This document shows positions 1,865 to 38,121 of a stretch of 42,682 nucleotides of DNA, piece by piece. Origin of the DNA: Acidobacteriota bacterium (GTDB taxonomy: Bacteria; Acidobacteriota; Aminicenantia; UBA2199); contig JAQUQF010000001.1 in assembly GCA_028749105.1 (NCBI GenBank), forward strand, positions 1 to 42,682. The letters run 5' to 3'. How positions within the stretch are numbered: the stretch's first letter is position 1; the number at the start of each line of letters is the position of its first letter. The translations under genes were made by a program, and so were the position numbers. The notes under the pieces were generated by a model. That model worked only from the letters and a program-made list of their open reading frames with translations. It did not search any database and was not told where the DNA came from.

Positions 1865-2656
1865 TTATGGAAGTCGGTGGGGAGCGCTCCCAGCGCCAGG
1901 TTGGTCAGGTGGTCCCCCTGGATCGCCCAGGTCGGCCCCAGGATTGCTATCCAGCCGGACCCCAAGATTCCCCTGGCCGGCACTATCCGCGTCATTCCTG
2001 GCGGGTCCTGGCGTTTCCCTGGTCGCGCTATAGGGTTGGTCGCCGGCCGGCTGGACCTCCGCGCCATCAGGATCACTCGCGGCCTGGCGATTGGGATCCC
2101 CGGCCGGGCCCAGCAGCTTCCCCTTTGCCGCCGGCCTTTCCTCCTCCAAACCGATACGTGGTAGATTGTCCAGATACTCTCGGACATCCTCCGGCGTTAC
2201 TTCGCGCGTGGTCTCCACACGCACGGTGGGCCCGCCAGAAAGCAACTCTGATTTATCAGTCAGGATGCCCGCCAAAATCCCCAGATCGCGCGCAGGAATC
2301 TTTCGTGCGCGCTCATCATCAGACAGTAGTTCAATGATCCCCTCAACACACATGCGCGATGCTTCCCTACTCAAGGAAGCTATCCTTTGTTTTTCTATTG
2401 CTACATTCGCGGGCTCGCGCGCTCTGACCGCCAACACGGTGTGCGGACTCACGCACAGGATTCGCGCTATCCGCTGGACTCCTATTCCCTCCGCGCCCAA
2501 GGCAATTATGGCTCGATACTTTTCAGGCTCCGCAGAAAAAAGACGCGCCGCCGTGAAGGTTGGATTACGGCCACTTTCCTCCTCCTGAAAAAGACGCGCT
2601 GGCATCTGATCAGAAGAAAACAGCATAGGCTGTTGTTGTATCAACGATTCCGACAT
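1865..2656 (-). CDS. HTH DNA-binding protein with a helical middle domain and disordered acidic/Pro-rich tail; regulator or small-terminase-like
   Basis: ATG at 2656 preceded by AGAGGGAGTT. HTH-like GIGVQRIARILCVSPHTVLAVR, then LGILAGILTDKSELLSGGPT. The functional assignment is not resolved. Confidence 0.7.
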   Translation of the reverse strand: MSESLIQQQPMLFSSDQMPARLFQEEESGRNPTFTAARLFSAEPEKYRAIIALGAEGIGVQRIARILCVSPHTVLAVRAREPANVAIEKQRIASLSREASRMCVEGIIELLSDDERARKIPARDLGILAGILTDKSELLSGGPTVRVETTREVTPEDVREYLDNLPRIGLEEERPAAKGKLLGPAGDPNRQAASDPDGAEVQPAGDQPYSATRETPGPARNDADSAGQGNLGVRLDSNPGADLGDPGGPPDQPGAGSAPHRLP

Positions 2657-2979
2657 AACTCCCTCTGGACCTTACGCCAGTAAAAAACGGTCGCTGGTTT
2701 CCGATCGCCGCGGGGCCCACCATTCCAGATGCGCGCAATCCGCTCTGGACTGGCACTTGGTCCGGCGTAATGGCGAAGGTAAAGCTCAGCTATTCTGAGC
2801 GCGTGGTGGGGCACTAGCGCCGCGTGATGGGTGTATTGGGTGCCATAGATCCGATTGACATCCAGCACTACCGCCTTATGGATCTGCATGACCCCCAGGG
2901 CCCGGCCCTGATCGCCTACCGCGGCCGGGTTATTCCCCGACTCGACGATGATCATCGCCGCCAACAGTTGCGCCATCAC
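2641..2979 (-). CDS. Lytic transglycosylase / lysozyme-like (SLT, GH23-type) domain protein, 112 aa
   Basis: Catalytic-Glu motif IIVESGNNPAAVGDQGRALGVMQI plus downstream IARIWNGGP. GGGGGTGG Shine-Dalgarno before the GTG/ATG start at 2979/2976. Confidence 0.85.
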   Translation of the reverse strand: MMAQLLAAMIIVESGNNPAAVGDQGRALGVMQIHKAVVLDVNRIYGTQYTHHAALVPHHALRIAELYLRHYAGPSASPERIARIWNGGPRGDRKPATVFYWRKVQRELCRNR

Positions 2980-3364: not shown

Positions 3365-3393
3365 AAGCTACAGGCCGACGCTCATTCTGTCAA
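3365..3393 (-). promoter_or_regulatory. Candidate sigma70-type promoter reading leftward
   Basis: Minus strand TTGACA (3393-3388), 17-nt spacer, TAGCTT (3370-3365), in the AT-rich gap 3219-3406. The -10 element is weak. Confidence 0.3.
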
Positions 3394-3406
3394 GATTTAT
3401 TTTCAA

Positions 3407-4000
3407 TTATTTTAGCCGAAAGATTCTATCGGAAAATCTAGCTCGTATCGAAGAAACTATCTGATCGTCCGAACCGTAGGTGGCCAACAAAAACATTGGA
3501 TCCAATTCCTTATATTCAGCGCCTCCAGCAACTCTACTGAAGTAAGCAAACCGGATTTGGATGGCGACGGCATGATTCGATTTCAATACAGTTGGCCATA
3601 CCATCATAAAGGGAAATATAGATTTTGCTGCATCTTGTGATGTAGGGAAAAGGTGGAATCCATGCCGCAATAACTCATCCCTTATTGCTACCCTGATCTT
3701 TATGGCAACATCGGGCTCGGATCCTTCCTCCAATTCCGTGACATATGCATACTGCGGTTGCTGATTCAATCCTGGAATCAACGGCGCCAAGGCCGGGCTC
3801 GGACTCGCCGGAGCGGGCGGCGCCATCTCCGGCACGGCATCGCTTTCCCAGAAATTAGAGGTGGCGTTGGTCGGCATAGACTCCAGCTCAAAACCTGGCG
3901 GTAGTTCTGCCGATTTAAAACCCGGCGGCAGCCTGGGATCAGCGGCAAAGGCCACCACTACAAGTCCACAACAAAGGCAAATCAGGAGCATTGGTTTCAT
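3407..4000 (-). CDS. Secreted (Sec signal peptide) protein, 197 aa, with an N-terminal LPPGFKSAELPPGFELES motif shared with the giant protein
   Basis: ATG at 4000 in an ATGA overlap with 3997..4179. MKPMLLICLCCGLVVVAFA|ADP has an AxA cleavage site. The body of the gene is visibly lower in GC than its neighbours. Confidence 0.8.
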   Translation of the reverse strand: MKPMLLICLCCGLVVVAFAADPRLPPGFKSAELPPGFELESMPTNATSNFWESDAVPEMAPPAPASPSPALAPLIPGLNQQPQYAYVTELEEGSEPDVAIKIRVAIRDELLRHGFHLFPTSQDAAKSIFPFMMVWPTVLKSNHAVAIQIRFAYFSRVAGGAEYKELDPMFLLATYGSDDQIVSSIRARFSDRIFRLK

Positions 4001-4179
4001 AACTCCCCCCGTTGCCGGGCCCATCGGATCTTGGCGGCCCTAATCGCCGCCCGGCGTTTTCTCGCTCCTCGGCCGGCGTGGCCGCCAATCTTCCCCCAGG
4101 CGACTGCGGCGGCGTGGGTAATGATAGCGGTCTCAATCACCGTCCCGCACTTTGGGCAGATAACTTTTCCGCTGTTCAT
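3997..4179 (-). CDS. Small basic protein with a CxxC knuckle, 60 aa
   Basis: ATG at 4179 preceded by AAAGGAGGAAGA. MNSGKVICPKCGTV... with the tail GRGARKRRAAIRAAKIRWARQ. Confidence 0.6.
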   Translation of the reverse strand: MNSGKVICPKCGTVIETAIITHAAAVAWGKIGGHAGRGARKRRAAIRAAKIRWARQRGEL

Positions 4180-4390
4180 TCTTCCTCCTTTTGCGCTCAG
4201 CGGCCCGCTCGGCCGCATACCAGCGGGCCATAACCCAAAAGACCTTCGACAGCGCCGCCCGATATGTAATGCGCCGGCGCTCTTCCCGCAAGCCTAAAAT
4301 GTCCCCTGGCTCCAGACTTACAATCAGCCGCCGCCCAGAGGCTAATGGCCGCTCTCCGCGCCTTTTCACCGTCTTCTTTAGTCCTGTCAT
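4133..4390 (-). CDS. Hypothetical basic protein, 85 aa
   Basis: ATG at 4390 in an ATGA overlap with 4387..4617. Its 3' end overlaps the next gene by 47 nt. Confidence 0.55.
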   Translation of the reverse strand: MTGLKKTVKRRGERPLASGRRLIVSLEPGDILGLREERRRITYRAALSKVFWVMARWYAAERAAERKRRKNEQRKSYLPKVRDGD

Positions 4391-4617: not shown

Positions 4618-4804
4618 AGTTCCCCCCTTTCTTACCAACCCTATAGAGCAACTTTCATGCCAAGCAGCTTCGTATATGACAAGAATACATAATCCCCTTA
4701 TATTTCGACGCTTTTAGTTTTCGCCTGGGCACCAATCCGTAGCAGCTTCGCAAAAATGATATTGTAATTCCGCAAAACTGCTACGCGGCGGGGTGTTTGG
4801 ACGG

Positions 4805-7800
4805 CTAACGCCGGTCTTCTATGACCGTTTGTAGGCGCTGATATTTCTCGGCAGAGGTGGGAGCCTGGAGACTGGTTCGCAGGTCCAGAGGTAGAAGTTT
4901 GGCGATTTCTTCTTTCTTTACCGACTCCAGGAAGTTTGCCGCATAATGCCGCTTGATTGCCAGCGCCGGCGGTAATGGCTGGTTGGGATACTTCTGGAGC
5001 AGGTATGCTCCCTCTGCCAGTTTGACTCTGACCTCCGGCGTCAGAACATCTTGGAGCCGCCTGGTGCGCTTGAATGTCGCCATCATCTTATCTATTTCCA
5101 GCCGATTCTCGGCCATCTGATCCCCTGCTGACTTCGAACTCCGCGCCAGGTATTCCTTGTAGCCTACATTGGAGACCTTGAGCCGCCGCCCGAGACTGGC
5201 GGCCACCAGCGGGATCCGCAAAAACTTTTCAATCCCGCTGGTGGGCAGGTCCGGATTGGTATCAAACCGCCCGAGTAACCCGCCCAAGCTCTGATTCCAC
5301 TCCATTTGTGCGACCTTGATCGCGTCCTCGGGCCCGATCTCCCGGGCCTCATCCCGCGATAGCATCGGCCGCCCGCGCGCCATGGGATTTCCCCCGCCGG
5401 CCAGGATCAGGCCGTCATAGAGCATCTTGGTCATGGGGTTTATGCCTGGCAACTGTCCACCGGCGAACGAAGCCAGATTGCCGGCCACCTGCTTCCAGTC
5501 CTGGGCGGGCCCGATCCCCGCGAGCGCGAGCGCGCTGTTGGCCAGGGCCGCCACTACCCTCTCGGGTTCTGCCCAGACATGCCGGTAATAGAGGACTTTG
5601 CGCTCTTTCCTGTCCACCCAGCACAGAGGGATGCAGAGATAATTCATTTTATCAGATTCAGAGATGGAAAGATCCATTTCTTCGGATTCGTTACGCTTCT
5701 TCCGGCCGGCCAGCCACATCCCCAGGCCGCCAAAGACCAAGGCCCGCAGCGCCAACGGCCAGATCACCCGCCGGGCAGAGTTCCAGGCAAATTCGGCCGG
5801 CCGGTTCCGGGCTGTCCGCCAGAGCGAGCGCGAGCCCTCTTTGATTGCGTTGTAGAACAGAACAGCCAGGCGGATGTTGGGCGTATAACTCCCCTTTTCG
5901 AGGAAATCAGGCGAGCCGCTCATCATTCGCACCGTAATCCTCTTTTCCCATTCCGGCATATCGGGTTGGTATTTATCCAGGTGTTGCATCCCGGCAATCT
6001 TGACGGTTCGCTCTAAAACCTGGCCATATTCGCCCTGGTGCTTGAGCCAGTCTAGCATCACCCTAAATAATTCCTTGTCCCGGGTGCTGTCCAGGGGATC
6101 CAGGCCGCGCCGTTTCATTTCCCGGATAAACGGATCCGTCTCCGCGCCTTCGCCCCAATATCCTTCGCTACGGGATATGACCATCCCGCGCTTGAGGGCC
6201 AGCATGGCCAGCGCGTTTTCCCGCCCCGCGTATTGCTGGTGGGCTGCCCGGAAGCTCGATAATGCAAACTCCCCAAAGGCGCCCCCGGTCCCAGGCACGT
6301 ATTCCCGCCAGCGCCGCCAGGTCCCGGGCATCTGGAAGTTGAACGCGCCGACGTCTCGGGGAAAATTGGTAATAAACCAAAACCACGGATTCTTGGCCGT
6401 GATCCCGGAGGCGATCACGTCGTTGGCCACCTGGAGCGCGCCCTGGGCCAGGGAATGGGTCATAATCGAGTTACCCCGATTCCATTGGTCCACCAGGAAG
6501 CGCGGGGCATACCAGGCGTATAGCTCCCCTTTGTGTATGCAGTAAATTGTTCCAATCCGAGCATCATCGCGTTCAATAAACTCCAGCCGCCGCCCGGTCC
6601 ATTGTTTCTCTGCCTGCCGAAATAGATCCTGGTATGGCGAGTTGAGCATAGCCTGGATGGCCACCCATTTAGCGCGTTCTTTATACATCCAGTTGATCAG
6701 CGCGGCGCCCTTTAGTAGTGTGGCGCTTTCGGGGTTGGCAATCGGTCCGGTCATGCCGATTTGACGATAAACTTTATTCCCCACGCCCGATCCCAGCCGG
6801 TTGTTAAGCGCCTGCTGCAGGCTATCCTCGGTCTCATTCCAGCGCCCGCGGACCGCGGCAAACGTGCAATATACGCGGTTGTCTTCCAGCCATTTCTGGA
6901 GTGCTTCATCCAGGATCTCAAACTCCCTGGCCTGGCCGACGACCTCTTGCTGCCAGATCTCGGAGAGCTTCTTCTGCGAAGCTTCCAGGGCCGCAAACCG
7001 TTCCGGCCCCAGGTTGCGTTTCAATTCCTCGATCCGTTCCCTGGCGCTTTTCGGCGTGGCCAGCCAGGGGTTGGCCAGGTTCATCCGGCCGCCGGTGGAG
7101 TCCCGCCATTCGTAGCCTACCCGCAGCAGGAAGTCATACTCCCCGCGATCCTTCCGGTTGAGCCCCAGCTTTTCGCTGGGCGCCACCACTTCGGAATTGA
7201 CGCGCGCGGCAAATCGTTCAATGGGCGCCCCGCGGTAAAGGTAGTCGGAAAGCGCTCCCAGGGCCGGGCCGCCCTGGTCTTTGGGCAGGCGTTCCAGCCG
7301 CCATTGGTAGGGCCGGAAGATCCGGTCCAGTTTCATGCTGAATTCTTCCTGGCGCTCCATCCTGGTTGGCGCCAGGCTGGATTGGATCACCAGCAGTTGG
7401 TCCTGGGCTTCCATGTCCGCGCGCAGGTTGCGGACCCAATCCTCGCGCGCCGTGCCAGCCTTGATCTTCTCCTGAATCGCATCGTATTCCCGCTTGAGCG
7501 CCGGGCGTTGTTCCAGGTATTCGTAGAACAGGTGCGTGAATAGTGGCGCGCGCTTGTGGACCGCCGCCGGGTTATTGAGCAGGGCGCTGACCGCCTCGGC
7601 ATACATCTCCTCGGGCTTGTCGTAGTAGGGCTGCCATTCTCCTCCTCCGCGCCACCAGAGGATGAGGTTCTTGAGTTCGGCCTTGACCTGGCCTAGCGTG
7701 ATCATGCCGCGGCGATCGGTTTCACGCTTGACCAGTTCGGCGTAATGCTGGCTGACCTGCTTCTTCCAGGCGTCCCGTTGGCCAGCGGGCGGCCGTTTGC

Positions 7801-10800
7801 CAGCGCGGCGCTCGGCCTCGCGGCGCAGTAGCCGGCGATCCCGATCCGTCAGGGCTGCTTCTGGCGTGGCGGGCGTCTTGGCCATGGCCTCTTTCAGGTA
7901 ATTTCGCAGCGCCGCAATGTGTCCAAAGAGGTTTCCGCGGCCGTCAATCATCTCTTGTGGCAGCCAGTCCCCGAAATGTCCCACCTCGTGCATGGCCACC
8001 TTGGCGGCCAAAAGCGGGCCCTCGGCCAGGGCTTTCTCGACCTGGGCCTCAAAGAGCATCTTGTAACGCTCCCCGGCCGCGGCGCGCAGCTCTTCGGGGG
8101 TGGCCGTGGCGGGCAGGTTGAGCTTTGCCCATTCCTCGGCGTCTTGGGCCATACGTTCCTTCTCGTCCGGCTGGACCAGGTTGAAAATGCTGGCTTTGAG
8201 TTCAATTTCCCCCGGGGCGCGCAGTCGGAAGAGCCCCAGGACGCCGCGCTGGTTGCCGCGGAAGCGCTCTTTGATCTTCATCCAGCCGCCGCCGGTCAGG
8301 ACGCGGAAGAGCATCCCCACTTCCGGCAGTTCCATCGGGACGACGCTGTAATTGGGATCGTCCGCGATGGGGATCTTCTCGACCGTCCCCGCCTGCCCCA
8401 GGCCGGGCCCCGGCCAGCCGGCGCCGTAGGCGTCCGCATGCTCCTCCCCGCCCGGCCCCACGGTGCCCAGCTCCCTGCGGCCGCCGCGTTTCGGCGCGGC
8501 CGCCGGCTCGAGGTCGCTCATTTCTTTGCGGCCGGCTTCCACTTCCGGGATGAAGGCGGCCATGTCCACGTCTGCGCCGTTCTGGGCCATGAGCGCCACG
8601 TCCAGCTTCCGCTGGAGCACCCCAATCCGCTTCTGATCCCCAAAACTTGAGGGGGCGGTAAGGAATTGTGCATGGCTATTGCTCTTGGTGGTGCGCCGGC
8701 TGATTCGCCCCAGGAGTTGCTGGAAGACGTCCCCCGAGAAATCCATGGAAAGCACCAGCATTGTCCGGGGTTTGTCCCCTACCCGGTCGTCGAGGTTGAC
8801 TCCCGTTCCACCGCTTTTAGCGGTCATGACGGCGACCGGGACCTTGTCCTTCTGGAAAGCGTCAATGGCGGTGGTTTTATCGCCTTTGCCGAATATACTC
8901 GCAAACGGGATCTTGGCGGCCTCGAGCGCCTTGACCAGTTCCGTCGCGCTACCCGGAATGGTGTAATGCTTGCCGACCTGGGCATCCCAGATTTTCGCCA
9001 GCTTGAGTTTGCTCTTGATCATCCAGTCTGAATCTCCCGGCGCCGGTGCCGGCCGCCGCAGGCGTTCAGAGGCGTTGACGGAATCCACCACGATGATCAC
9101 CTTCTGGCCGGCGGCCAGGGCTTCTTTGGTGCGGCGTATGGCTTCCGGGACCTTGTGCGGTTCGGCCAGGTGGGCCATGGCTTGTGTCCGCAGGCCGCTT
9201 AAAATTATCCGGTATTTGCTCCTTGGGGGTAGGCTCCGGATGGCTTGGTCATAATAGGCCAGCATCCGTTGTTCATGCTCGGCCACTTCGCGCGGCATTT
9301 CAACGTTGGTTCTCTCCAGTTTGCCCAGGAATGGATATTCCCGGCGGATCATGGCGCCGTTCTTGATGGCGCCCAGGCGCATAAGGGCCAGGTTTTGCTT
9401 GATACGTGGCCAGTCAAATCCCTGCAAGGGGACGACCACTTCCGTTATTTCGCCAGTTTCGGGATCCTGTTTCTCCTTAATCTCAAATCCCAGCAGGTTT
9501 GCGATGTAATCGGGTTGCAAACCGGTGATCTCGGCCATGAAATAGGCCGCGCCCGTTGGCCGGTCCATCGGCGTTGCGGTGGCAAAGACAATAAACTCCG
9601 CGCTGCGGACCAGTTTCTTGCTGGCTATGGTTTTGCTTGCCAGGGAGTTCTTGAGGTTGTGGCTTTCGTCCATCATTACCACGTCAAACTTCCTCCCGGC
9701 GATTGGATGCGTCGTCGGTTTCACCTGCTCCAGATGCTTGAGTGCGACCGGATTTTCCCCGCTGACTCCTGTATATGTGGCCAGGTAAAACCGATTCAGA
9801 TCAATCTTCAGGCGCTTGGCGTCGTCCAGGAAGCTTCCTTGCAGGATTGATTTTGCCTGGGTCACGATCAGGATCTTGGATTTCCCGCCGCTCTGTTCGT
9901 ATAGTTCGTTGGCGGCTGCCAGCATTTCGGTGGTCTTGCCCAGCCCGACCCCGTCGCCCAATAGATAGCCGCGCTGCTTCTTCTTCGCCCGGGTGAGGAT
10001 GGCGTTGACGCCCAGGCGTTGCTCTTCGCTCATGTCGTATTTCCCGCGGGGGACTATTTCCTCGGGTTGGGGGATGTCGGCCTGGTTGACTACGATCAGG
10101 TCCGTGCGTTCCTTGCCGGGCCCGGGGATAAACTTCTCGCGCGGTTTGGTGTCGTCAGCGGCTTCAATCTTGCCTTGCTTGACCTCTCCCCAGACGGCTA
10201 TCTCGCCGGATTGAATCATATTTCCGGCCAGCTTGGCGATTTCCTCGTATTTGCCCGCAAAGCGTTCACCATAGCGGGCCAGGACCGCCTGGGCGGCCTC
10301 GGGTGTGATCAGCGCCGGCGCCTGGCCGGTTTTCTGAGCGCTTTCAACCGCCGCGGCGGCGACCGCCCGGGCCCCGGCGCGGAGTAACTTTTCTTGTTCT
10401 TGGCTGTAGTCCGCGGGGGCCTCACCGAAGCGCTGGGAGTGGGCGGGCATGCCGAAGGTCAGTTCCGGCCGGTGTGCGCCGGGCTGCGGTAGCTGCATCT
10501 CTTGTCGCAGGCTGCGGCCCAGGGTGGAGACCACGTCCAGCAGAACGTTGTTGTCCAGCGCTTGCCGCCAGGTGGGCAGGTAGCGCTCGAATTGCTCGGG
10601 GGTTACCGCGGCCAGCAGGCTGTTGGCGCCTGTCTGCCGGGCTAGCCGGCGGGCGGTGGCCTGTTGCCGGGTGAGATTGTCCTCCAGCGTGGCTTCCTGG
10701 AGTTCCGCCAGGCAAACGACTTTGCCCGGACTGGTTATGCCGATCATGAGGATGGTATTCTTCGGCCGCTGACCGTAGGCCGCGTTGATCTGTATCACCT

Positions 10801-13800
10801 GCAGTTCGCTGCCTATCTTGGCGCCTAAAAGCGGATGGGGTGTGTCAGGGGTCAGCAGGGGATCCGGGGCGGCGGCCAGGGCTTGATCTTCGATGATTCT
10901 ATAGTTGCCTTCCGGGTCGTAGTATCCGAATTTGCCGTGATCGCCCACCAGGGCGCCTTTCATCCGCGGTCCTATGAGTTGCCGCAGCGCAACCGTCATC
11001 TGTTTGTCTTCGGCGCTGGTGCGCTTCACGTCCCCGCTCGGGTGGTTGTGAAAGGCCATGATTTCAAGGTCAAGCTCTTCGGCCAGTTGTTTGATCGGGA
11101 TGGCGATCTCATCGTAATTCCGGGGCATGTGGACTGCGCCAGGCAGGCGGCTGGTAATGGGTAAGTCCAGCACCACCTGGCCGCTGGCGCGGTCGGATGC
11201 CAGCAGGTGAAAGACCTCTAACCGCGCGCAGCGGGCGGCGCGGACGAGTTGCTGGATGCCGGCCAGGGTGTTGAGTTGGTGGCCGATCAGCGGCGCGACG
11301 CCGTTGAGGGAGAGTTCGTAGGCAATGCCGCGGCCGGTAAGGGTGAGCCGGCGTGGTAGTCCGGGGTGCTGCGGGTCAGATACCCTGCCGCCTGAAACCT
11401 CGCTGATCGCTTCGAGCGCTGTTTTGATGTTGGCGACTTTGTCTTCGCCTGCTCGTTGGGGGTAGTCATTGAAATCCAGCTCCAGTTGTTGATAGTCCTC
11501 GCCGGGTTCGGAATATCTGGTTGGTGCTGCGGTCTTTTCTATCCGGGCGCGGAGTTCCGGGCGTAGGGCCGGACGCTCCCAGATAAAATCTGGCATGTGG
11601 CCGATTTCCGGGAAGGGTTCGGCGCTCCACCCCTTTGCGATGAGATCGGTTACCTCAGGATCCAGGGTAAAGATTTCGGCAGGGGATACACCCCGTTCCA
11701 CGGCCTCTTTATACCATTCCCGGCCGCGCGCGGTTTGCAGACGCTTGATCGCCCAGGCCGTCTTTTCGGTGCTGTAGATGTAGATGAGCCTTTGGTTTTC
11801 ATAGGTGTCCGGCTTTAGGGACGTCATTTCCTCGACCACCTGGGCCGGGAAGGGACTGTAAATATCCGGCTTTTCTAATAGCCTACCCTGGGTTTTGGTG
11901 GCGTCAAGGAATAAATCTGGCTGCGGCGGCGGCAGGACCACCGGGACCTGGCGGGCCAGCCAGCGAGTATGTTTGGCCGTGGCTAGCTGTATCCTGATGC
12001 TGGCTTCCTCTTCCGTGATCCTGCCTTCGTCCAGGGCGGTGATCAGGGCCTTGGCCTTCTGAATCATTGCCCGGCTGGCCAGCCCGGCAGCATCCCCCGT
12101 CGCCGGGCCGGCCAGCTCCATCCCGGCGATCTCCTCGATCTCCTGGCGCGCCTTGGTCTTGGGCTTTTCGGACGGGAATAGTTCCGGCTGGGTGAAAAGC
12201 GCGTTGTATGCCGCCGGGACGTCGCGGACCGTTACCACCGGCGCGCCAAAGGTGTCTTCCGGAAGTTCCTTGCCATACTTTGTAGCCGCTTCGCCCACCT
12301 TGGGCGGGTTGATCAGCGCGTCTAGCTCGTCCAGGGCCGCCTGGCTCAACCCCACCGGCCCCGCCGGCGGCTGTCCTGGCGTGGGCGTTGTCGGGATCCC
12401 GGCCTCGGCCGGCGGCGCCGGCGGCTGTCCTGGCGTGGGCGTTGTCGGGATCCCGGCCGCGGCCGGCGGCGGCTGTCCGGCCGCCAGGGATTCAGGGAAG
12501 CCTTCCATCCCGCGGCTGATATGCTCCAACAAGTCAATCTTGACGGTGCTGGGTGGTTTGCCGGTGAAAAGTTCAAGCTGGTCCTTGCGGACCTGCACGG
12601 CCATTTGTGCATATTTCTCCAAAGCCTCCCGGAGTTGTTTGGCGCTCTTGGCTTGGGTGAGGATCAACGCCAGGCGGCGCTGTTCGGGGCTGGCGTTCTT
12701 GAACATATCGAGCTGCGAAAAGAAGAGCTCCATTGTCGGGAAGGTTCCTTCCGTGACCAGGCGCTTGCCTTCCAGGATGAATGGCATGGTGGCGCTGATC
12801 TCGGGGGCCAGATCAAACTCCGGCCGGGTGGCCTTGAGGCGCGCCAGGACTGGCGTGGCGGCGGTGATACCGCGCAGCATGTCCTTGACCCGGTATTCTC
12901 CGGCGCGTTCCAGGAGCGCCGCGACCGAGTCGTGAACGCCTGGATCATCCCGTAACAGCAGGGCTAGCAGGGCTCGCTGGATCCGGGCCTCGGTCTTCTC
13001 TGGCAAAAGCAGGCCGCGGCTGTCGAAGAGATCGCTGGAGTCGTCTATGCCCGCCAGGAATCCCTCAATAAAGCTCTTATTGCTGGCCGCTGTAATCTCG
13101 CCGCTTTCCGGCAGATTCATGGCCGCCAGTAGGTTCCCGGCGCTGATTACCTCGGCGTCAGCCAGGGATTTCTCGGATTCGGACATCGTCTGCGTTACCG
13201 CGCGGTTGCTTTCTCGCGCGAAGTCCGGCGCGTCGGTGCCGGTGTAACTGCTGATAATGCGCGCCACAAACGGCTTGGTCATACCTGCCGGTGGCGGCCC
13301 GATCTTTACTTTCTGCGCCAGGGCAGCAGAGTAGTCCTTCAATGCCACCTTCCGGGGGTCGTTGTCGTCCAGGGCATAAACGTCCTCCAGGGTGTCCATG
13401 CGCCCGTAACCGGCCACCGGCCGACCTACGGCGGCGTCTATCATCGGCGCGCCGTAGTCGCTGGTGGTGGATTCTCCCAGGCGGTCAGGAGCGAATTCCT
13501 GCAGTCGCCGGCTCCGGCTCATGGTGTAGATCTTCCGCTGGCGGTTGCGTTCCTGCAGCCCGGCGAGTTGGGACGCGTTGATGTTCCGCGCGGCTTTGAC
13601 CTGGGGATCGTCCAAATCCAGCCAGGCGTAATAGCCTTCCGCCACCTTCCCGGGGACCTGCGGCGCTTGCACACGGAAGCCTACCACCCCCGCCGGCGCC
13701 GGCGGGATCCGCACCTGGGGCTTGACCACCGGCGCCAGGGGCGGCACGGCCGGCCCGGCGGCCGGCGGCGTGGCGGCTAAAGCCTGCCGGATCCCCGCCA

Positions 13801-15484
13801 GGGCCGGGTCTGTTCCCGGCAGGGCCGGCAGTAACCCCGTCCCACGCCGGGCTTCGGGCGCAGGGCCCCTGGCGGCCAGGGGTTGCTGTTCGATTCCGAT
13901 CCCGCGCGCGCGGGCCAATTCCGCTTGGGCCGCCTTGTCGCCTTTGCGCGCCCGGGCCGCCAGATCTTTCTGCCGCAATGCTTCCGCGCGTTCGGCGCCT
14001 TGGACTTTCTCGCGCCATTCTTCGCGGAATCGGGCGGCATCTCCCCAGGCTTTGGCCAGTTCTTTGTCTTTGAGATAAAGATCCACCTGCTGCTGGGCCC
14101 GAGCGTCCCCTTGCATGGCCGCTGTTACCCAGGTGTTTGCTGCTTTTGCGTCTAAGCCTTGCTTGATCAACTGGCTGACCGCCTGGCCAGCCAGGACTTG
14201 TTGCACCATATCCGGGAGTTGCATGCCAACGAGTAGAGCAAAGGTGTTGCGGACGTCTTCGCTGGTTACCTCCTGCCCCATGGCTTTCTGCGCGGCAGAG
14301 AGTTCCAGGGTTCTGAGCCCGGCGCCGGCAAGTTGCTTGGCCACCCTTTGGAACGCGCCGCCTTGGGGCGTAAACCATTTCGGCAAGGGCGTTCGCAAGA
14401 GTATTCCCGAGACCGCCGATGCTCCCAGGCCTTGCATATCCCATTGTGGCTTCTCGCCGGCTGTAACCCGCATATCATTGTCAAGCATCTGGTGCTGTAG
14501 GTTGAGGAGTGGCAAGCCTACCCATGGGACGCTGGCAATCAGCGCGTCGCCGCCCAGCGCAAAGCGGGGAATATCCTGGAGCAGAGTGTCCGCCAGGGAG
14601 TTGCCGGTCCCCAGCTCTCCCATCCGTATAGCGGCGTCCTTGACTTCCTGGGGCGTGAACACTTCTTTCCGGCGTTCACCGGTAACGGGGGAATAGTAGG
14701 TTTCCGGGTGCGTGGCCAGCTCAAGACGTTGGGTTACATTCCGGACGGCCTTCCCGGCGACTGATGGCCCGAAAACCCCCAGAAATGGCTTTCCAAGCGC
14801 TTCCCGGAAGAATCCGCCGCCACGGGCGTATTCCCGGGCTTGAACCTCCAGGGGTTTCGGCGGCGGCGGAAATAGCCGTTCCTGGACGCGCTGCAGCACG
14901 GATTTGGGTTGATCGGGAGCCCGTAGAACGGGGCCCTCTTCCGGCTGCATGGCGGCGGCGGTCTCCATCCAGGCTTTGGGATCTGTCGGCTCCGGCGGGA
15001 TCGCCAGGTAAGGCATCAGATCCTGGTCCAGCCGGATTAGCTGCTGGGGTTGGACGAATTCAGCGGCCTTTGTGGAAAATTTCGGCGGCGGCGGGGAGAT
15101 CGCCACCTCCGGCGGCTGGCTGACCCCGACCGGCGGCGGGGCGCCCTGTAAGAGGGTCTCACCTGGCGGCAGCTCGGCCTGCGGCGGAATTGCCCCAGGC
15201 GGCTCAAAGCTAAACCCCGCCGGCAACATCTCCAGCTCAAACCCAGGCGGCAATTCCCCCTGGCCGGCCGGTGGCGCTTCCAGCTCAAACCCAGGCGGCA
15301 AGGCCGCCGGGTCAGCCTGCTGCACCGGTGGCGCCTCCAGCTCAAACCCAGGCGGCAATTCCCCCTGGCCGGCCGGTGGCGCTTCCAGCTCAAACCCAGG
15401 CGGCAAGGCCGCCGGGTCAGCCTGCTGCACCGGTGGCGCCTCCAGCTCAAACCCAGGCGGAAAATCTATCTGATCCCGTTCCAT
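4805..15484 (-). CDS. Giant polyvalent protein, 3,559 aa: PPGFELE repeats, RadC-like JAB, SNF2-family ATPase, HExxH zincin motif, hydrophobic unassigned C-terminal region
   Basis: Single uninterrupted ORF with ATG at 15484. The motifs listed in the sub-features below were read directly from the translation. Confidence 0.92.
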   Translation of the reverse strand: MERDQIDFPPGFELEAPPVQQADPAALPPGFELEAPPAGQGELPPGFELEAPPVQQADPAALPPGFELEAPPAGQGELPPGFELEMLPAGFSFEPPGAIPPQAELPPGETLLQGAPPPVGVSQPPEVAISPPPPKFSTKAAEFVQPQQLIRLDQDLMPYLAIPPEPTDPKAWMETAAAMQPEEGPVLRAPDQPKSVLQRVQERLFPPPPKPLEVQAREYARGGGFFREALGKPFLGVFGPSVAGKAVRNVTQRLELATHPETYYSPVTGERRKEVFTPQEVKDAAIRMGELGTGNSLADTLLQDIPRFALGGDALIASVPWVGLPLLNLQHQMLDNDMRVTAGEKPQWDMQGLGASAVSGILLRTPLPKWFTPQGGAFQRVAKQLAGAGLRTLELSAAQKAMGQEVTSEDVRNTFALLVGMQLPDMVQQVLAGQAVSQLIKQGLDAKAANTWVTAAMQGDARAQQQVDLYLKDKELAKAWGDAARFREEWREKVQGAERAEALRQKDLAARARKGDKAAQAELARARGIGIEQQPLAARGPAPEARRGTGLLPALPGTDPALAGIRQALAATPPAAGPAVPPLAPVVKPQVRIPPAPAGVVGFRVQAPQVPGKVAEGYYAWLDLDDPQVKAARNINASQLAGLQERNRQRKIYTMSRSRRLQEFAPDRLGESTTSDYGAPMIDAAVGRPVAGYGRMDTLEDVYALDDNDPRKVALKDYSAALAQKVKIGPPPAGMTKPFVARIISSYTGTDAPDFARESNRAVTQTMSESEKSLADAEVISAGNLLAAMNLPESGEITAASNKSFIEGFLAGIDDSSDLFDSRGLLLPEKTEARIQRALLALLLRDDPGVHDSVAALLERAGEYRVKDMLRGITAATPVLARLKATRPEFDLAPEISATMPFILEGKRLVTEGTFPTMELFFSQLDMFKNASPEQRRLALILTQAKSAKQLREALEKYAQMAVQVRKDQLELFTGKPPSTVKIDLLEHISRGMEGFPESLAAGQPPPAAAGIPTTPTPGQPPAPPAEAGIPTTPTPGQPPAGPVGLSQAALDELDALINPPKVGEAATKYGKELPEDTFGAPVVTVRDVPAAYNALFTQPELFPSEKPKTKARQEIEEIAGMELAGPATGDAAGLASRAMIQKAKALITALDEGRITEEEASIRIQLATAKHTRWLARQVPVVLPPPQPDLFLDATKTQGRLLEKPDIYSPFPAQVVEEMTSLKPDTYENQRLIYIYSTEKTAWAIKRLQTARGREWYKEAVERGVSPAEIFTLDPEVTDLIAKGWSAEPFPEIGHMPDFIWERPALRPELRARIEKTAAPTRYSEPGEDYQQLELDFNDYPQRAGEDKVANIKTALEAISEVSGGRVSDPQHPGLPRRLTLTGRGIAYELSLNGVAPLIGHQLNTLAGIQQLVRAARCARLEVFHLLASDRASGQVVLDLPITSRLPGAVHMPRNYDEIAIPIKQLAEELDLEIMAFHNHPSGDVKRTSAEDKQMTVALRQLIGPRMKGALVGDHGKFGYYDPEGNYRIIEDQALAAAPDPLLTPDTPHPLLGAKIGSELQVIQINAAYGQRPKNTILMIGITSPGKVVCLAELQEATLEDNLTRQQATARRLARQTGANSLLAAVTPEQFERYLPTWRQALDNNVLLDVVSTLGRSLRQEMQLPQPGAHRPELTFGMPAHSQRFGEAPADYSQEQEKLLRAGARAVAAAAVESAQKTGQAPALITPEAAQAVLARYGERFAGKYEEIAKLAGNMIQSGEIAVWGEVKQGKIEAADDTKPREKFIPGPGKERTDLIVVNQADIPQPEEIVPRGKYDMSEEQRLGVNAILTRAKKKQRGYLLGDGVGLGKTTEMLAAANELYEQSGGKSKILIVTQAKSILQGSFLDDAKRLKIDLNRFYLATYTGVSGENPVALKHLEQVKPTTHPIAGRKFDVVMMDESHNLKNSLASKTIASKKLVRSAEFIVFATATPMDRPTGAAYFMAEITGLQPDYIANLLGFEIKEKQDPETGEITEVVVPLQGFDWPRIKQNLALMRLGAIKNGAMIRREYPFLGKLERTNVEMPREVAEHEQRMLAYYDQAIRSLPPRSKYRIILSGLRTQAMAHLAEPHKVPEAIRRTKEALAAGQKVIIVVDSVNASERLRRPAPAPGDSDWMIKSKLKLAKIWDAQVGKHYTIPGSATELVKALEAAKIPFASIFGKGDKTTAIDAFQKDKVPVAVMTAKSGGTGVNLDDRVGDKPRTMLVLSMDFSGDVFQQLLGRISRRTTKSNSHAQFLTAPSSFGDQKRIGVLQRKLDVALMAQNGADVDMAAFIPEVEAGRKEMSDLEPAAAPKRGGRRELGTVGPGGEEHADAYGAGWPGPGLGQAGTVEKIPIADDPNYSVVPMELPEVGMLFRVLTGGGWMKIKERFRGNQRGVLGLFRLRAPGEIELKASIFNLVQPDEKERMAQDAEEWAKLNLPATATPEELRAAAGERYKMLFEAQVEKALAEGPLLAAKVAMHEVGHFGDWLPQEMIDGRGNLFGHIAALRNYLKEAMAKTPATPEAALTDRDRRLLRREAERRAGKRPPAGQRDAWKKQVSQHYAELVKRETDRRGMITLGQVKAELKNLILWWRGGGEWQPYYDKPEEMYAEAVSALLNNPAAVHKRAPLFTHLFYEYLEQRPALKREYDAIQEKIKAGTAREDWVRNLRADMEAQDQLLVIQSSLAPTRMERQEEFSMKLDRIFRPYQWRLERLPKDQGGPALGALSDYLYRGAPIERFAARVNSEVVAPSEKLGLNRKDRGEYDFLLRVGYEWRDSTGGRMNLANPWLATPKSARERIEELKRNLGPERFAALEASQKKLSEIWQQEVVGQAREFEILDEALQKWLEDNRVYCTFAAVRGRWNETEDSLQQALNNRLGSGVGNKVYRQIGMTGPIANPESATLLKGAALINWMYKERAKWVAIQAMLNSPYQDLFRQAEKQWTGRRLEFIERDDARIGTIYCIHKGELYAWYAPRFLVDQWNRGNSIMTHSLAQGALQVANDVIASGITAKNPWFWFITNFPRDVGAFNFQMPGTWRRWREYVPGTGGAFGEFALSSFRAAHQQYAGRENALAMLALKRGMVISRSEGYWGEGAETDPFIREMKRRGLDPLDSTRDKELFRVMLDWLKHQGEYGQVLERTVKIAGMQHLDKYQPDMPEWEKRITVRMMSGSPDFLEKGSYTPNIRLAVLFYNAIKEGSRSLWRTARNRPAEFAWNSARRVIWPLALRALVFGGLGMWLAGRKKRNESEEMDLSISESDKMNYLCIPLCWVDRKERKVLYYRHVWAEPERVVAALANSALALAGIGPAQDWKQVAGNLASFAGGQLPGINPMTKMLYDGLILAGGGNPMARGRPMLSRDEAREIGPEDAIKVAQMEWNQSLGGLLGRFDTNPDLPTSGIEKFLRIPLVAASLGRRLKVSNVGYKEYLARSSKSAGDQMAENRLEIDKMMATFKRTRRLQDVLTPEVRVKLAEGAYLLQKYPNQPLPPALAIKRHYAANFLESVKKEEIAKLLPLDLRTSLQAPTSAEKYQRLQTVIEDRR
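7900..8300 (-). other. Zincin-like metallopeptidase motif region of the giant protein
   Basis: HEVGH at nt 7976-7990 (aa 2499-2503). A downstream EMYAEAVSALL supplies a possible third-ligand Glu. The fold is not verified. Confidence 0.55.
8670..10030 (-). other. SNF2-family SF2 ATPase/helicase module of the giant protein
   Basis: Motif I GDGVGLGKT (about 9930-9960). Motif II DESHNLKN (9647-9670). Motif III TATP. Motif V SGGTGVNLDD. Motif VI QQLLGRISRR (8693-8722). Confidence 0.85.
10880..11290 (-). other. RadC-like JAB/MPN (JAMM) domain of the giant protein
   Basis: HNHPSGDVKRTSAED (nt 11006-11050, aa 1479-1493) fits H-x-H-x7-S-x2-D, with an upstream Glu in ARLEVFHLL. Confidence 0.75.
12366..12458 (-). 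repeat. Duplicated 39-nt block (54-nt period) encoding GIPTTPTPGQPPA linker repeats inside the giant gene
   Basis: ggcggctgtcctggcgtgggcgttgtcgggatcccggcc occurs at 12366-12404 and again at 12420-12458. Confidence 0.85.
15230..15460 (-). repeat. 105-bp tandem repeat, 2.2 copies, encoding (PPGFELEAPPVQQADPAAL-PPGFELEAPPAGQGEL)n
   Basis: Copies start at 15230, 15335 and 15440 (partial) and look identical by eye. There are six PPGFELE motifs in aa 8-95. Confidence 0.9.
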
Positions 15485-15487
15485 GGC

Positions 15488-16942
15488 TTATGCTGGCACC
15501 CATTGCCCGTTACGATATACCATCCTCGCGCCGGTCGCCTTATTGACGGCTGTCGAGCCCTCAATAGGCTTCGGTCCCGCGGGCGCTGCGGGCGCCGCCG
15601 GTGCGGCGCTGCCGGCTGGCGGCGGGGCCACTTGCGGCCCGGCTTCCTGGGCTGGCGGCGGTGTGCCGGAAAACTTGCTGCTCATGAATCCCATCATTTG
15701 CTGCATCAAACCCGGCTCAACCGGGGTAACTTCGACATTCGCGGCAGCATTCTGTAGCATTTCCATCAAAGGATTGGGGCTCTTTAGGACCTCCATGGTG
15801 TCGGCGTTCACGATCATGTTGCCCATCTTGACAAAACGATGCGTCTTACCCTGGCCATCGGTAACGGTATATTGCGGCATCTGCTGTTTGTCCTCAAACT
15901 GCTTTGCTTGCTGCTGCAGTTTCAGGGCCGCCTGGTCAAGGCGCTTTTCTCCCAGATCCTTCTGGAGTGCCAGCCGGGCTTGGTCAGCGGCGGCTTTCCT
16001 GGCTGTCTCTTGTTCCCGCGCTCTGGCCTGGGTTTCGGCGGCTTGGACACGCGATTCCCCGGTGGCCTGCGCGGCCGCTACCCGGGCTTCGGCCGGTATG
16101 CGCGCTTTTGCCTCGGCCGTCCGTGCGGCAAACCCGGCAATCCGTTCCTGGGTCTGCCTCTGCCGCTCCGTGGCCTCTTCCTGGCGGCCTTCGCGTAACC
16201 GCCGCTGCTGCTCTTCGTGCGTCATGCCCGCTCCCACCTGGTTGGTGGCGGCGTTCAGCGCGCCCACCGACCGTGCGTATTGGCTCCAGATGTTTTCGCC
16301 TTCCTTGATCTGCCGCTCCCGCTCCGCCATGGTCGCCGGCGCCAGGCGCGACATCGGCATCCCCGTTGAGGTCACCGCCCCGCCAAACCGATCAAATGGC
16401 GCCTGCTGCCCCGGCGCCTGGGCCGGCGCGGCCACGGACGCCGGCGCCATCACGGGCGGCCGCGGCTGCGCGGCGGCGTATTCCTCCATGGCGTTCAATG
16501 TCCCGCGCTGGGCTGGCGTCCCGCGCTGTATCCCAAAGTCCGCCAGCGCCGGTCCGGGCGCCGCCCCGGGCCGCCAAGGCCCAGGTGGCAACTGTCCGTA
16601 ATTCTGCATCTGATTCAGCATCCGGTTTTGCCCAGGCAACCCGGCAGGCAATCCCAGGTCCGTTGGCGCCGGCTGGGCATTCGACCACGGCCCCGGTCCC
16701 CGCCCGACCGCTGCGGGCGCGGCCCCGGCCGCGGCCGCGGCCGCTTGAATGGCCGCCGGCGCCGGCGTGGCCGCGGGGACCGCCCCCCCGCGCGCGCGCT
16801 GCCATTCGGTTGATCCCACCCGCTCCCCAGCGGCGTTGGTGTCCCCGCGCAGATAGTCGCCCAGCACGTTGATCCCCTCCTGATTGTCCATCGGATTTTG
16901 CAATAATTCGCGGCGCCGCCGCATCTCTTCTTCGTAGGTCAT
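15488..16942 (-). CDS. Low-complexity Ala/Pro/Gln-rich coiled-coil protein, 484 aa (putative internal virion/ejection protein)
   Basis: ATG at 16942 preceded by AAGGAGACACC. Long ERQ-rich helix. Its stop lies 3 nt before the giant gene start. Confidence 0.7.
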   Translation of the reverse strand: MTYEEEMRRRRELLQNPMDNQEGINVLGDYLRGDTNAAGERVGSTEWQRARGGAVPAATPAPAAIQAAAAAAGAAPAAVGRGPGPWSNAQPAPTDLGLPAGLPGQNRMLNQMQNYGQLPPGPWRPGAAPGPALADFGIQRGTPAQRGTLNAMEEYAAAQPRPPVMAPASVAAPAQAPGQQAPFDRFGGAVTSTGMPMSRLAPATMAERERQIKEGENIWSQYARSVGALNAATNQVGAGMTHEEQQRRLREGRQEEATERQRQTQERIAGFAARTAEAKARIPAEARVAAAQATGESRVQAAETQARAREQETARKAAADQARLALQKDLGEKRLDQAALKLQQQAKQFEDKQQMPQYTVTDGQGKTHRFVKMGNMIVNADTMEVLKSPNPLMEMLQNAAANVEVTPVEPGLMQQMMGFMSSKFSGTPPPAQEAGPQVAPPPAGSAAPAAPAAPAGPKPIEGSTAVNKATGARMVYRNGQWVPA

Positions 16943-16958
16943 GGTGTCTCCTTTCGAG

Positions 16959-17918
16959 TTATGCGTTGGTAAAGTTCCATTTGAACAAAAAGAAAGAACC
17001 GCCGCTACTGTGCCAATAAGTTGATTGATACTCTACCGGGATCACATCCCAGGCAAAACCAGCGCCAACCTTGGTAAACGGCGACTCGTCATAATACCCC
17101 ACCAGATCAGTTAACACCGATGCGTCAGCGGCTTCCGACCATTCTTGAAACTTCTCAAAACCTGCTCCCGTCAGTCCTAGTTCGGGGTCTATAATCCCAA
17201 CCCCCTGATGGTATAGCCACGCCCATAATTCCTTAGCCGCCGGGCGTCCAGTCCAAATCGAACCGCACCCAAACTTCGCCGCCGTGCGAAACTGCTCGTC
17301 CGCTGCGCCCTGCGTGTAAGCCCAATACCATTCGTTTTCGCCGCCACCACTAATCCAAGGGGCCGCAGCCCACCCCGCGTTATCGGCGCTCCATCGCGTA
17401 GTTGCATCAACCCCTTGCGTCGGAACGCCGCTGCCATAAGCCTTATATCCCATAATCGCGCCGCCAAGGTCTTCCCACTTCTGATAAGCTGGCGTCCACT
17501 TCAACGCCGCCAGGCCCTTCTGTAAATCCTCAAAACACCAGTTTCCGCGCATGTCTCCAGCCCCAATCTTCCCGTAGCTGAACGGATCCCCGGGCTCCAC
17601 CTTGCGCCGGAAACCGTCCGCATGCAGCCCCGCCGCCGCCCGCCAGGTCGCCAGCGTGAACGGCCGGAAACTCTTGCTGTCGGCGGCCAGCGGACCGGAC
17701 ACATGATCCACAAAGTTAACGCAGTTGGTTTCCAGCCAGTCCTGGATCGCCCGCCAAAGCGTCTTGTCCTGCGCGGCCGCGCCGGCCGTCAGCGCCGCCA
17801 CCGCGCTTTGCCTTAGCGCCTGCCGGCGCTCGCTGTAAGCCAGGACGATCTCATTCGCCCCGGCCAGGTCCTGCCCGCCATTGGTCCAATCCGCCGGCGC
17901 TGTAAATGCGGCGCTCAT
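16959..17918 (-). CDS. Trp-rich hypothetical protein, 319 aa (putative virion protein)
   Basis: ATG at 17918. Preceded by a heptad-repeat leader. No recognised motif. Confidence 0.7.
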   Translation of the reverse strand: MSAAFTAPADWTNGGQDLAGANEIVLAYSERRQALRQSAVAALTAGAAAQDKTLWRAIQDWLETNCVNFVDHVSGPLAADSKSFRPFTLATWRAAAGLHADGFRRKVEPGDPFSYGKIGAGDMRGNWCFEDLQKGLAALKWTPAYQKWEDLGGAIMGYKAYGSGVPTQGVDATTRWSADNAGWAAAPWISGGGENEWYWAYTQGAADEQFRTAAKFGCGSIWTGRPAAKELWAWLYHQGVGIIDPELGLTGAGFEKFQEWSEAADASVLTDLVGYYDESPFTKVGAGFAWDVIPVEYQSTYWHSSGGSFFLFKWNFTNA

Positions 17919-20796: not shown

Positions 20797-20976
20797 CTAT
20801 TTTGCCGGCGCCGGCTTGCGGGCGGACTCGATATACCGCCAAACCGCCGCGCCAATGATCAGGAGCGCGCCCACCACGCTCTCCAGCTCGCCCTCCGTGA
20901 TCTTGCCGTTGGCCACCAACCCGCCGCCGACAATCAGTAGGATCTGCCGCGCCACCATGACGATTTTCTCATACAT
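20797..20976 (-). CDS. Small two-TM holin-like/lysis-regulator protein, 59 aa
   Basis: ATG at 20976 preceded by AAAGGAGGGCAAGAAAC. MYEKIVMVARQILLIVGGGLVANG...VVGALLIIGAAVWRYI. Overlaps the stop of the 3TM holin gene by 8 nt. Confidence 0.55.
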   Translation of the reverse strand: MYEKIVMVARQILLIVGGGLVANGKITEGELESVVGALLIIGAAVWRYIESARKPAPAK

Positions 20977-37912: not shown

Positions 37913-38121
37913 GCTTTGCCTTGCCTCCTTTCCCGCTTGAGTTCCCTCTCAATCTCCCGGGCGCGCTCCAGGTCCTCCGCCACCCCGACGATCGCTTCTG
38001 TAACTTTCTCCCCCGCCTTTCTTTGCCGAAGCGCCCAGGCGACCGCATCCCCCAGCCGGCGCACAAAGAGCCCGCCGGCTTCATGCCATTCCACCGCCCA
38101 CCATTGTTTCCATTCATTCAT
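37909..38121 (-). CDS. Hypothetical 70-aa protein
   Basis: ATG at 38121. ATGA overlap downstream and an 8-nt overlap with the dnaB stop. Confidence 0.55.
   Translation of the reverse strand: MNEWKQWWAVEWHEAGGLFVRRLGDAVAWALRQRKAGEKVTEAIVGVAEDLERAREIERELKRERRQGKA

Follow-up and report, generated by a model that had tools for sequence, protein, structure and literature searches.

The 42,682-nucleotide contig JAQUQF010000001.1, referred to here as the window (the whole stretch of DNA that was analysed), is a podovirus-like phage contig (SU10-type capsid, portal, terminase, and DnaB). It encodes two proteins that share a short peptide, namely, a giant protein of 3559 residues that opens with an array of PPGFELE motifs, and a small protein of 197 residues in which the same motif stands behind a predicted signal peptide. 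We propose that the small protein is a periplasmic decoy that vies with incoming ejection proteins for their partner, a reading that we hold tentatively and consider quite possible, if somewhat short of probable. Beyond this one phage, the motif, in the general form of an N-terminal twin of LPPGFxL[D/E], and a C-terminal tail on the neighboring upstream protein, its candidate partner, recur reproducibly across dozens of contigs and appear to be undescribed. The elements on which the argument turns are the following.

3407..4000, minus strand: gene for the 197-residue protein, predicted to be exported (open reading frame, ORF, and its translation)
3944..4000, minus strand: signal peptide, residues 1-19 (MKPMLLICLCCGLVVVAFA), predicted to be cleaved after AFA (hydrophobicity and the -3/-1 rule)
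3755..3943, minus strand: residues 20-82, the arm at the N-terminus of the mature protein, disordered and rich in proline, with both motif copies (AlphaFold predicted local distance difference test, pLDDT, below 50 for residues 12-72)
3917..3931, minus strand: motif copy 1, LPPGF(KSAE), degenerate past the Phe
3881..3904, minus strand: motif copy 2, LPPGFELE, canonical
3410..3754, minus strand: C-terminal alpha/beta domain, residues 83-197, with a predicted PelC/LptE/PqiC-like fold (two AlphaFold runs and Foldseek)
4805..15484, minus strand: giant polyvalent protein of 3559 residues in the third-ejection-protein position (domains, and match in position to the gp16-like slot)
15203..15460, minus strand: N-terminal motif array of the giant, five PPGFELE and a degenerate LPAGFSFE
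15230..15460, minus strand: perfect tandem duplication, 2.2 copies of a 105-bp unit (Tandem Repeats Finder, 100% matches, score 462)

That the small protein shares the PPGFELE motif of the giant was the starting point of the original prediction, and it is borne out by local alignment of the giant N-terminus with the small protein, which scores 84 against 33 +/- 6.5 for 500 shuffles (z ~7.8). The chance of LPPGFELE occurring in a 197-residue protein is about 1.6e-7, and among the real reading frames of the window PPGF is found in the small protein and the giant only. The likeness spans the whole repeat unit (ADPAALPPGFELE...ELPPGFELEMLP versus ADP-RLPPGFK...ELPPGFELESMP), such that the first 22 mature residues of the small protein, with motifs starting at residues 6 and 15, echo one repeat unit of the giant (ADP-x-LPPGF ... 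ELPPGFELE-xx-P). Over 24 aligned codons, 18 of the 24 residues are kept, with a proportion of synonymous differences (pS) of 0.68 and a proportion of nonsynonymous differences (pN) of 0.18, the latter biased downward because the alignment was picked for amino-acid identity. Synonymous sites are thus near-randomised, and the similarity at the DNA level that had been offered as added support, real as it is (19/21), mirrors the shared peptide and carries no independent information. This pattern argues for a peptide maintained by selection in both genes.

The array in the giant had been counted as six PPGFELE copies, of which five are exact and one is degenerate. As the 105-bp repeats are without a single mismatch, the amplification is recent; and since the copies arise from this duplication, the ancestral state was a twin, as in the other phages described below. 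The duplication lifts the motif count from the usual two to five, and it could reflect either slippage or selection for higher avidity.

The export of the small protein is predicted from its N-terminal layout, in which Lys at position 2 precedes a 15-residue hydrophobic core (MLLICLCCGLVVVAF, Kyte-Doolittle 12-residue maximum 3.28) and A-F-A occupies positions -3 to -1, leaving ADPRLPPGFKSAELPPGFELES as the predicted mature N-terminus. The earlier assignment of a Sec signal peptide with cleavage after VAFA agrees with these signal rules, under which the protein would be a substrate of Sec and of signal peptidase I. Residues 1-19 are the sole hydrophobic stretch of the protein, all other 19-residue stretches having Kyte-Doolittle values of at most 1.6. 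A lipoprotein was considered and rejected, given that the lipobox [LVI][ASTVI][GAS]C is absent and that Cys 8, 10, and 11, which follow I, L, and C instead of G, A, or S, come too early within the hydrophobic core; so was a spanin, in view of the absence of a lipobox and of a C-terminal membrane segment and of a predicted alpha/beta structure instead of a coiled coil.

Past the disordered arm, full-length AlphaFold prediction gives residues 83-196 as beta-alpha-beta-alpha-beta-beta-beta-alpha, and prediction on residues 76-197 alone returns the same topology (pLDDT 80.2, predicted template modeling score 0.72). Foldseek searches of both models against the PDB yield a near-uniform list of Gram-negative envelope proteins, headed by PelC (E 2e-4, query template modeling (TM) score 0.50-0.59) and including LptE, GNA1162, PqiC, and CT253; the N-terminal domain of TolB was among the matches of the first search only. 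The matches have E values of 2e-4 to 1e-3, probabilities of 0.99-1.00, and, for models made from a single sequence, sequence identities of 5-14%, which denote fold resemblance and not family membership. Against viral models, Foldseek found nothing meaningful for the small protein. The predicted fold agrees with the signal peptide in pointing to the periplasm of a diderm host. Binding of the arm to its own C-terminal domain was also entertained; the low pLDDT of residues 12-72 in the full-length model lends it no support.

The motif is by no means confined to the window. Two degenerate DNA patterns, each demanding two motif copies, returned 9 and 22 viral stretches as well as two genome-bin contigs, one of them from another Acidobacteriota metagenome-assembled genome (MAG). 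In all loci except L027, L032, and L038 the twin starts 2-21 residues past the start codon; counted along the proteins, its first copy begins at residue 4-21, and its two copies are mostly spaced 12-19 residues apart. The carrier proteins are about 250-1000 residues in size, with exceptions at 3204 (L024), 2813 (L033), and more than 1382 residues (L031), and most pairs of carriers are alike over their first 30-50 residues only (all-against-all BLAST). This recurrence in about 30 phage proteins that are otherwise unlike one another, together with its retention in the disordered N-terminal tail of orthologous giants of only 40-50% identity, supports the view that the motif behaves as a short linear motif under selection. 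Motif and tail elements are present in dozens of uncultured phages, from hosts of 46-71% GC. The strings LPPGF, PPGFEL, PPGFVL, and LPEGF were not found in the literature in a phage context, and tblastn with a 37-residue twin-motif peptide against GenBank phages gave no match, the query being probably too short and of low complexity. Recognition of PPGF by a GYF-type domain was considered by analogy, and nothing GYF-like appeared in the Pfam results.

Where their genomic context is readable, the carriers occupy the third gene, that is, the P22 gp16 position, of a P22-like ejection cassette. Loci L010 and L011 run from a gp10-like head-closure protein through genes including a "DNA ejection" protein (phrog_598) and an unassigned protein to the carrier, which in L011 is followed by a tail fibre, and L024 has a "DNA ejection protein" (phrog_4287), a 561-residue protein, and a giant carrier in this order. 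The L008 carrier matches phrog_26400, "DNA ejection protein" (E 7e-60), and is related to gp40 of Xylella phage Xfas53, annotated as "DNA injection protein, similar to P22 gp16"; the L010 carrier has a relative in a "putative DNA transfer protein" from phage DSL-LC05. The giant of the window, with ddrB-ParB and SNF2/ResIII domains, a weak RadC match, and an HEVGH metalloprotease-type motif read from the translation, likewise falls into the ejection-protein slot, in keeping with its earlier description as an ejected protein.

The relatives of these carriers bear other sequences at their N-termini, so that the tag differs between lineages. The cultured relative DSL-LC05 has the twin ENPFAQFA/DNPFAQFA instead (L041 2525-2640), the metagenome-derived podovirus genome MW202713 has TFEIT...TYEVT with PDG/PEG turns (L020 4449-4550), and Xfas53 gp40 has neither an NPFAQFA nor a TFEIT-type tag. 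N-terminal twin tags may accordingly be a general, lineage-specific feature of third ejection proteins. Two carriers stand in other settings: in a Candidatus Angelobacter MAG, a 249-residue carrier has four LPPG[FY]xLE copies (L017 3326-4075), and in a Burkholderiales MAG, a 448-residue carrier lies between replication genes and terminase (L018 3444-4790), both without an upstream tail-bearing gene.

Against this background the small protein stands apart. Among the motif carriers found, it alone has a signal peptide ahead of the motif, and none of 56 motif instances in 288 kb of other loci has a hydrophobic segment ahead of it. The co-occurrence of the motif in giant/secreted-protein pairs of other phages, which the original prediction had proposed to look for, was not seen, as none of the other carriers has a signal peptide. 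Its first motif copy (LPPGFKSA), the spacing of 9, the length of 197 residues, the signal peptide, and the upstream zinc-ribbon gene together mark the small protein as a mimic and not as a member of the twin module.

A second conserved element accompanies the twin motif, at the end of the preceding protein.

15488..16942, minus strand: 484-residue protein encoded immediately ahead of the giant; by its position alone, a putative second ejection protein
15491..15553, minus strand: conserved C-terminal tail TAVNKATGARMVYRNGQWVPA, candidate partner of the twin motif

The protein upstream of the carrier (380-590 residues) ends, in almost all loci with a twin motif, in a tail of 21-24 residues with the consensus ..[ST]A-x-[NG]-P-x-T-G-x-[RK]-h-h-h-x-[NG]-G-x-W-x-P, followed by 1-3 residues and the stop. 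In the window the tail, at the end of the 484-residue protein, reads EGSTAVNKATGARMVYRNGQWVPA, and the last 24 residues of this protein match its equivalent in L011. Used as a regular expression, the tail has one match per locus, always at the C-terminus of the protein directly upstream of the carrier. It is missing from the cassettes of Xfas53, MW202713, and DSL-LC05, where the third protein lacks LPPGF, and the L004 tail, beside a motif that has drifted to IRYLDD, is without its tryptophan. The motif had been proposed to bind a host envelope or periplasmic factor; a host factor now loses its place as the only candidate, since the tail co-occurs with the motif, and the tail of the neighboring ejection protein is at least as good a candidate partner.

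Tail and motif are less than 100 bp apart, and the spacer in the window is TAA GCC ATG, in frame with the giant. The 484-residue ORF and the giant thus share a frame and are parted by TAA GCC (15482-15490), such that read-through of the stop would fuse the tail to the motif array. Among PDB sequences, a profile built from 21 tails matched the beta-arm of IHF/HU (RTGRNPKTGDKVEL, E 0.004) and nothing else, and the tail is for this reason described only as a probable small beta-meander with two tight turns; a WW domain, also considered, was not recovered in this search. The tail core (eGrTAxNPxTGxrhxh, 15491-15562) resembles the DNA-intercalating beta-arm of IHF/HU, which could denote either a shared hairpin geometry or DNA contact.

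With the N-terminal region of the giant as query one protein was matched (P0002), and an alignment-based scan gave four contigs of 42.7-43.7 kb (L003/L005 and L004/L006) and fragments; no further giant orthologues were added by a protein search with a 4-sequence profile or by a scan of genome contigs, and a scan with the C-terminal 700 residues found none. The giants of the relatives are 38-60% identical to that of the window over the aligned parts, and their disordered N-termini keep variants of the motif: LPEGYVLEE and VPDGYVLES in L001/L002, LPEGFVVDE and VPEGFALDP in L005, and IRYLDD and IRYLEDED in L004 (9473-9600). On the side of the giant, therefore, the motif is conserved among diverged orthologues, as had been expected. 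The small gene is absent from all these relatives.

The locus of the small gene adds the following features.

4003..4010, minus strand: ribosome-binding site GGGGGGAG (GGGGGAG), 2 nt ahead of the ATG, read from the sequence
3997..4218, minus strand: zinc-ribbon ORF of 73 residues, kept in relatives, the upstream edge of the insertion
3388..3406, minus strand: conserved promoter-like element TTGAAAATAAATCTTGACA, the downstream edge of the insertion (directly after the zinc-ribbon gene in L004; unique in the window)
2641-2979, minus strand: lytic transglycosylase with an SLT domain, probable endolysin, in the lysis region just downstream of the small gene (Pfam PF01464, E 1e-7)
803-1081: holin-like ORF of the lysis region

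The small gene is a lineage-specific insertion in a variable region, with atypical codon use. In the equivalent slot of L004/L007 and L005 it is missing, and the conserved element or other genes follow the zinc-ribbon gene. The small protein matched nothing but itself when 5.8 billion proteins were searched through a word index, when 1.84 billion cluster representatives were scanned in full with HMMER, and when viral contigs were scanned, and there was no Pfam, PHROG, or NCBIfam match; the same gene was called independently on two further assemblies. Its GC content of 0.497, against 0.614 for the window, confirms that it is lower in GC than its surroundings, and its GC content at third codon positions (GC3) is 0.495, against 0.52-0.84 in 15 other window genes (at least 0.58 in all but one). 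The last 110 codons have a GC3 of 0.43, below that of any 110-codon stretch in those 15 genes. As for the earlier label of a moron-like gene, the lineage-specific slot and the odd composition fit it, and no convincing promoter or terminator of its own was seen. Nor does the gene lie directly next to the giant gene, as had been stated, for three small ORFs (83, 85, and 73 residues) stand between.

The stretch behind the giant gene is variable in general, as unrelated small membrane proteins are found there in L007 (146 residues, 7062-7502, minus strand) and in L005 (177 residues, 16623-17156, minus strand, the strand opposite to the giant gene). In Xfas53, small membrane or signal-anchored proteins (L019 6035-6653, minus strand; gp41 and gp42) also lie just after the third ejection gene. 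This position seems to be a hot spot for genes of accessory envelope proteins, often on the opposite strand, with sieA of P22 as a parallel. In L005 (16613-16646), the giant and the convergent 177-residue ORF both end in LLYPTD[R/Q], and a 17-nt palindrome, which may be a bidirectional terminator, has one of their 3' ends in each arm. An element of the form TTGAAAATA-N2-T-N-TTGACA-N-AAT is common to the window (3388-3406) and the distant relative L004 (about 20919-20940); this promoter-like element has a perfect -35 hexamer and sits upstream of the SLT endolysin region. The sequence CGAAGCTGCT occurs twice without mismatch (4663-4672 and 4741-4750, 78 bp apart) in the AT-richer gap that separates the giant gene from the next ORF, and its window-wide counts are not above chance when one mismatch is allowed.

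How an exported copy of the tag might act can be envisaged in a few steps. The small protein would be exported and its signal peptide cleaved, placing it in the periplasm, perhaps against the outer membrane on its inner side, where its arm would display the ejection-protein tag at a free N-terminus. For an arriving phage of the same motif class to complete its trans-envelope DNA conduit, the N-terminus of its third ejection protein would have to engage a partner, be it a host envelope factor or the tail of its second ejection protein; were that partner already filled by the exported mimic, DNA delivery would abort. The outcome would be superinfection exclusion, or the sparing of progeny from wasteful ejection into infected cells and debris, and only phages with that tag would be affected. 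Because the periplasm is the only compartment in which an exported protein and virion-delivered proteins would meet one partner, the exported copy is best read as a competitor. A more specific version, for which we see a rather low likelihood, is that tag and tail are the two halves of a previously undescribed periplasmic docking joint between the second and third ejection proteins, and that the exported copy jams this joint in relatives. On this view, the recent five-fold amplification of the giant's tag could be a counter-move within the same exclusion contest.

A number of observations weigh against a decoy. The exported copy is a single instance, as no second phage with one was found, and within it copy 1 is degenerate and the spacing of 9 is shorter than in any natural twin observed. 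The accessory membrane proteins of L005 and L004/L007 are unlike the N-termini of their own giants (shuffle fractions 0.21 and 0.46). The small gene is co-oriented with and translationally coupled to the upstream ORFs, and no convincing consensus for a promoter or terminator of its own flanks it. Among the tested ORFs of the 42.7-kb contig there is no integrase, repressor module, or other lysogeny gene, so that the description of a resident phage, or prophage, finds no support. The structures of the small protein are single-sequence AlphaFold models, and TM-scores of about 0.5 denote fold resemblance only. The co-occurrence of tail and motif is explained equally well by inheritance as one block, given that they are less than 100 bp apart. 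Finally, the motif could be an encapsidation signal that is read in the cytoplasm, which would leave a periplasmic copy without a target.

This last consideration leads to the strongest alternative, namely, that the twin motif is a cytoplasmic signal for virion incorporation or co-assembly, for instance by docking the third ejection protein on the tail of the second. In that event the small protein would owe its copy to intragenomic recombination, as a by-product, and would act through its PelC/LptE-like domain only, as an ordinary envelope-modifying accessory. We regard this as somewhat unlikely. Packaged proteins such as the T4 internal proteins and P1 DarB are known to have N-terminal signals that target them to the capsid, and the motif is invariably found at the very start of proteins that are made in the cytoplasm; the adjacency of tail and motif in the DNA and the degenerate copy 1 of the small protein would also fit. 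It is harder to reconcile with the retention of 18 of 24 residues in the face of near-saturated synonymous sites, which suggests selection on the exported copy, and accident hardly explains a segment set between cleavage site and linker with its motif at mature residue 6, within the range (4-21) of the genuine carriers.

Less probable still, the small protein may be a helper that engages the same periplasmic partner late in infection, such as a host peptidoglycan hydrolase or a Tol/Ton component, and so aids lysis or release. The setting is suggestive, with the lysis region directly downstream (the promoter-like element, the SLT gene, and the holin-like ORF), an orientation shared with the late genes, and lysis genes that in DSL-LC05 likewise come after the ejection genes. 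However, relatives keep the same lysis region without the small gene, which is thus not needed for lysis, and the protein has no membrane anchor, lipobox, or coiled coil of the spanin kind.

It seems very improbable that the small protein is itself a virion or ejected protein, recruited by the shared tag and inserting its hydrophobic N-terminus into the host membrane after ejection: the tag in common with a packaged protein and the location less than 1 kb from the ejection-gene cluster speak for this, whereas the canonical Sec layout with its AXA cleavage site, a predicted fold that fits periplasm-facing envelope lipoproteins, and the absence of the gene from relatives speak against it. That the ORF is spurious or a decaying gene fragment, for all its lack of detectable homologues and its atypical composition, is scarcely credible in light of a strong ribosome-binding site, the overlap of its start with the stop of the upstream zinc-ribbon ORF (ATGA), a compact domain confidently predicted in two single-sequence AlphaFold runs with coherent fold matches, and its being called on independent assemblies.

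To return to the periplasmic decoy, its closest described system, as judged by analogy, is SieA of phage P22. The sieA gene is located in the variable region after gene 16, much as the small gene comes after the giant gene. SieA is an envelope protein that blocks DNA injection, and mutations that escape it map to gp16 and gp20 (Leavitt et al. 2024, PMC10883804). It is thus, like the predicted product of the small gene, a phage-encoded envelope protein, and its two escape classes correspond to the two protein classes implicated here. The differences are considerable: SieA is a multi-pass inner-membrane protein, comes from a prophage, and is unlike its targets, whereas the small protein has a predicted cleavable signal and no further membrane segment, copies the tag of its putative target, and belongs to a phage in which no lysogeny genes were seen.

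Other small exported phage proteins of the envelope, such as T5 Llp, phi80 and N15 Cor, and T4 Sp and Imm, stop superinfection or wasteful adsorption, and virulent phages make them too. Llp and Cor are receptor-masking lipoproteins, in contrast to the small protein with its lack of a lipobox, and Sp inhibits the tail lysozyme; none among them is known to copy a linear motif of an ejected protein. The translocation domains of colicins carry a short epitope in a disordered N-terminal region, which is used in crossing the periplasm and can be competed for. The arm of the small protein likewise presents a linear epitope in a disordered N-terminal region, and the colicin analogy that had been drawn would accordingly hold at the level of function. 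It does not extend to sequence, as LPPGFxL[D/E], compared by eye with no consensus scan run, is unlike the TolB box (DGSGW-type) and the TonB box (ETVIV-type).

As modeled, the domain of the small protein resembles in its alpha/beta topology PelC, LptE, PqiC, and GNA1162, which are outer-membrane lipoprotein folds (PMC10897342, PMC12141448). It differs from this family in showing no similarity at the sequence level (5-14% identity) and in having no lipid-anchor cysteine and no partner barrel or MCE protein encoded nearby. The giant, for its part, recalls the giant polyvalent proteins, for which Iyer et al. (2017, PMC5512222) predict packaging and ejection from genomic context, and phi24B gp47, which was found by virion proteomics and proposed as an ejection protein (bioRxiv 10.64898/2026.04.10.717836). 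Its gene lies, as theirs do, amid those of the virion, and it shares with them modules of the ddrB-ParB, SNF2, and zincin-like kinds; it differs in standing in for a gp16-sized ejection protein. The passages searched in PMC5512222 and on phi24B gp47 contain no mention of an N-terminal twin motif.

Every recognisable gene of the window is on the minus strand, among them the following.

38114-39481, minus strand: DnaB-type helicase
35177-37237, minus strand: large terminase
32277-33281, minus strand: SU10-type major capsid protein
28629-30911, minus strand: portal
24148-27024, minus strand: Kelch-repeat protein of 958 residues in the tail region (PF13964, E 9e-9)
minus strand: three proteins of 820, 319, and 484 residues without an assigned family

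The capsid protein has no match among GenBank phages. A Kelch domain is unusual for a phage tail protein, and the 958-residue protein may be a receptor-binding propeller; it was also considered as a receptor of the motif, for which no evidence was found. No terminal repeat is present on the contig, which leaves the completeness of the genome unproven. The contig begins within a GCC/GCCGCC-rich low-complexity stretch (positions 1-200, GC 0.71), and this start may be an assembly break in a repeat-rich gene, with the genome incomplete at that end.

The observations made here bear on how short-tailed phages build DNA conduits from ejected proteins, and on how SieA-like exclusion recognises these proteins. 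They yield two sequence elements, short, conserved, and mutable, where the second ejection protein adjoins the third, together with one natural case in which such an element has been moved behind a signal peptide. Even if the exported copy should prove to be no competitor, the twin motif and the tail are worth recording. Should it be one, the function of the tag would be located in the periplasm, exclusion would have a specificity code at the level of peptides, and simple peptide decoys could serve as tools against defined groups of phages. If the mimicry is true, it would constitute a new form of superinfection exclusion, exerted through the phage's own short linear motif.

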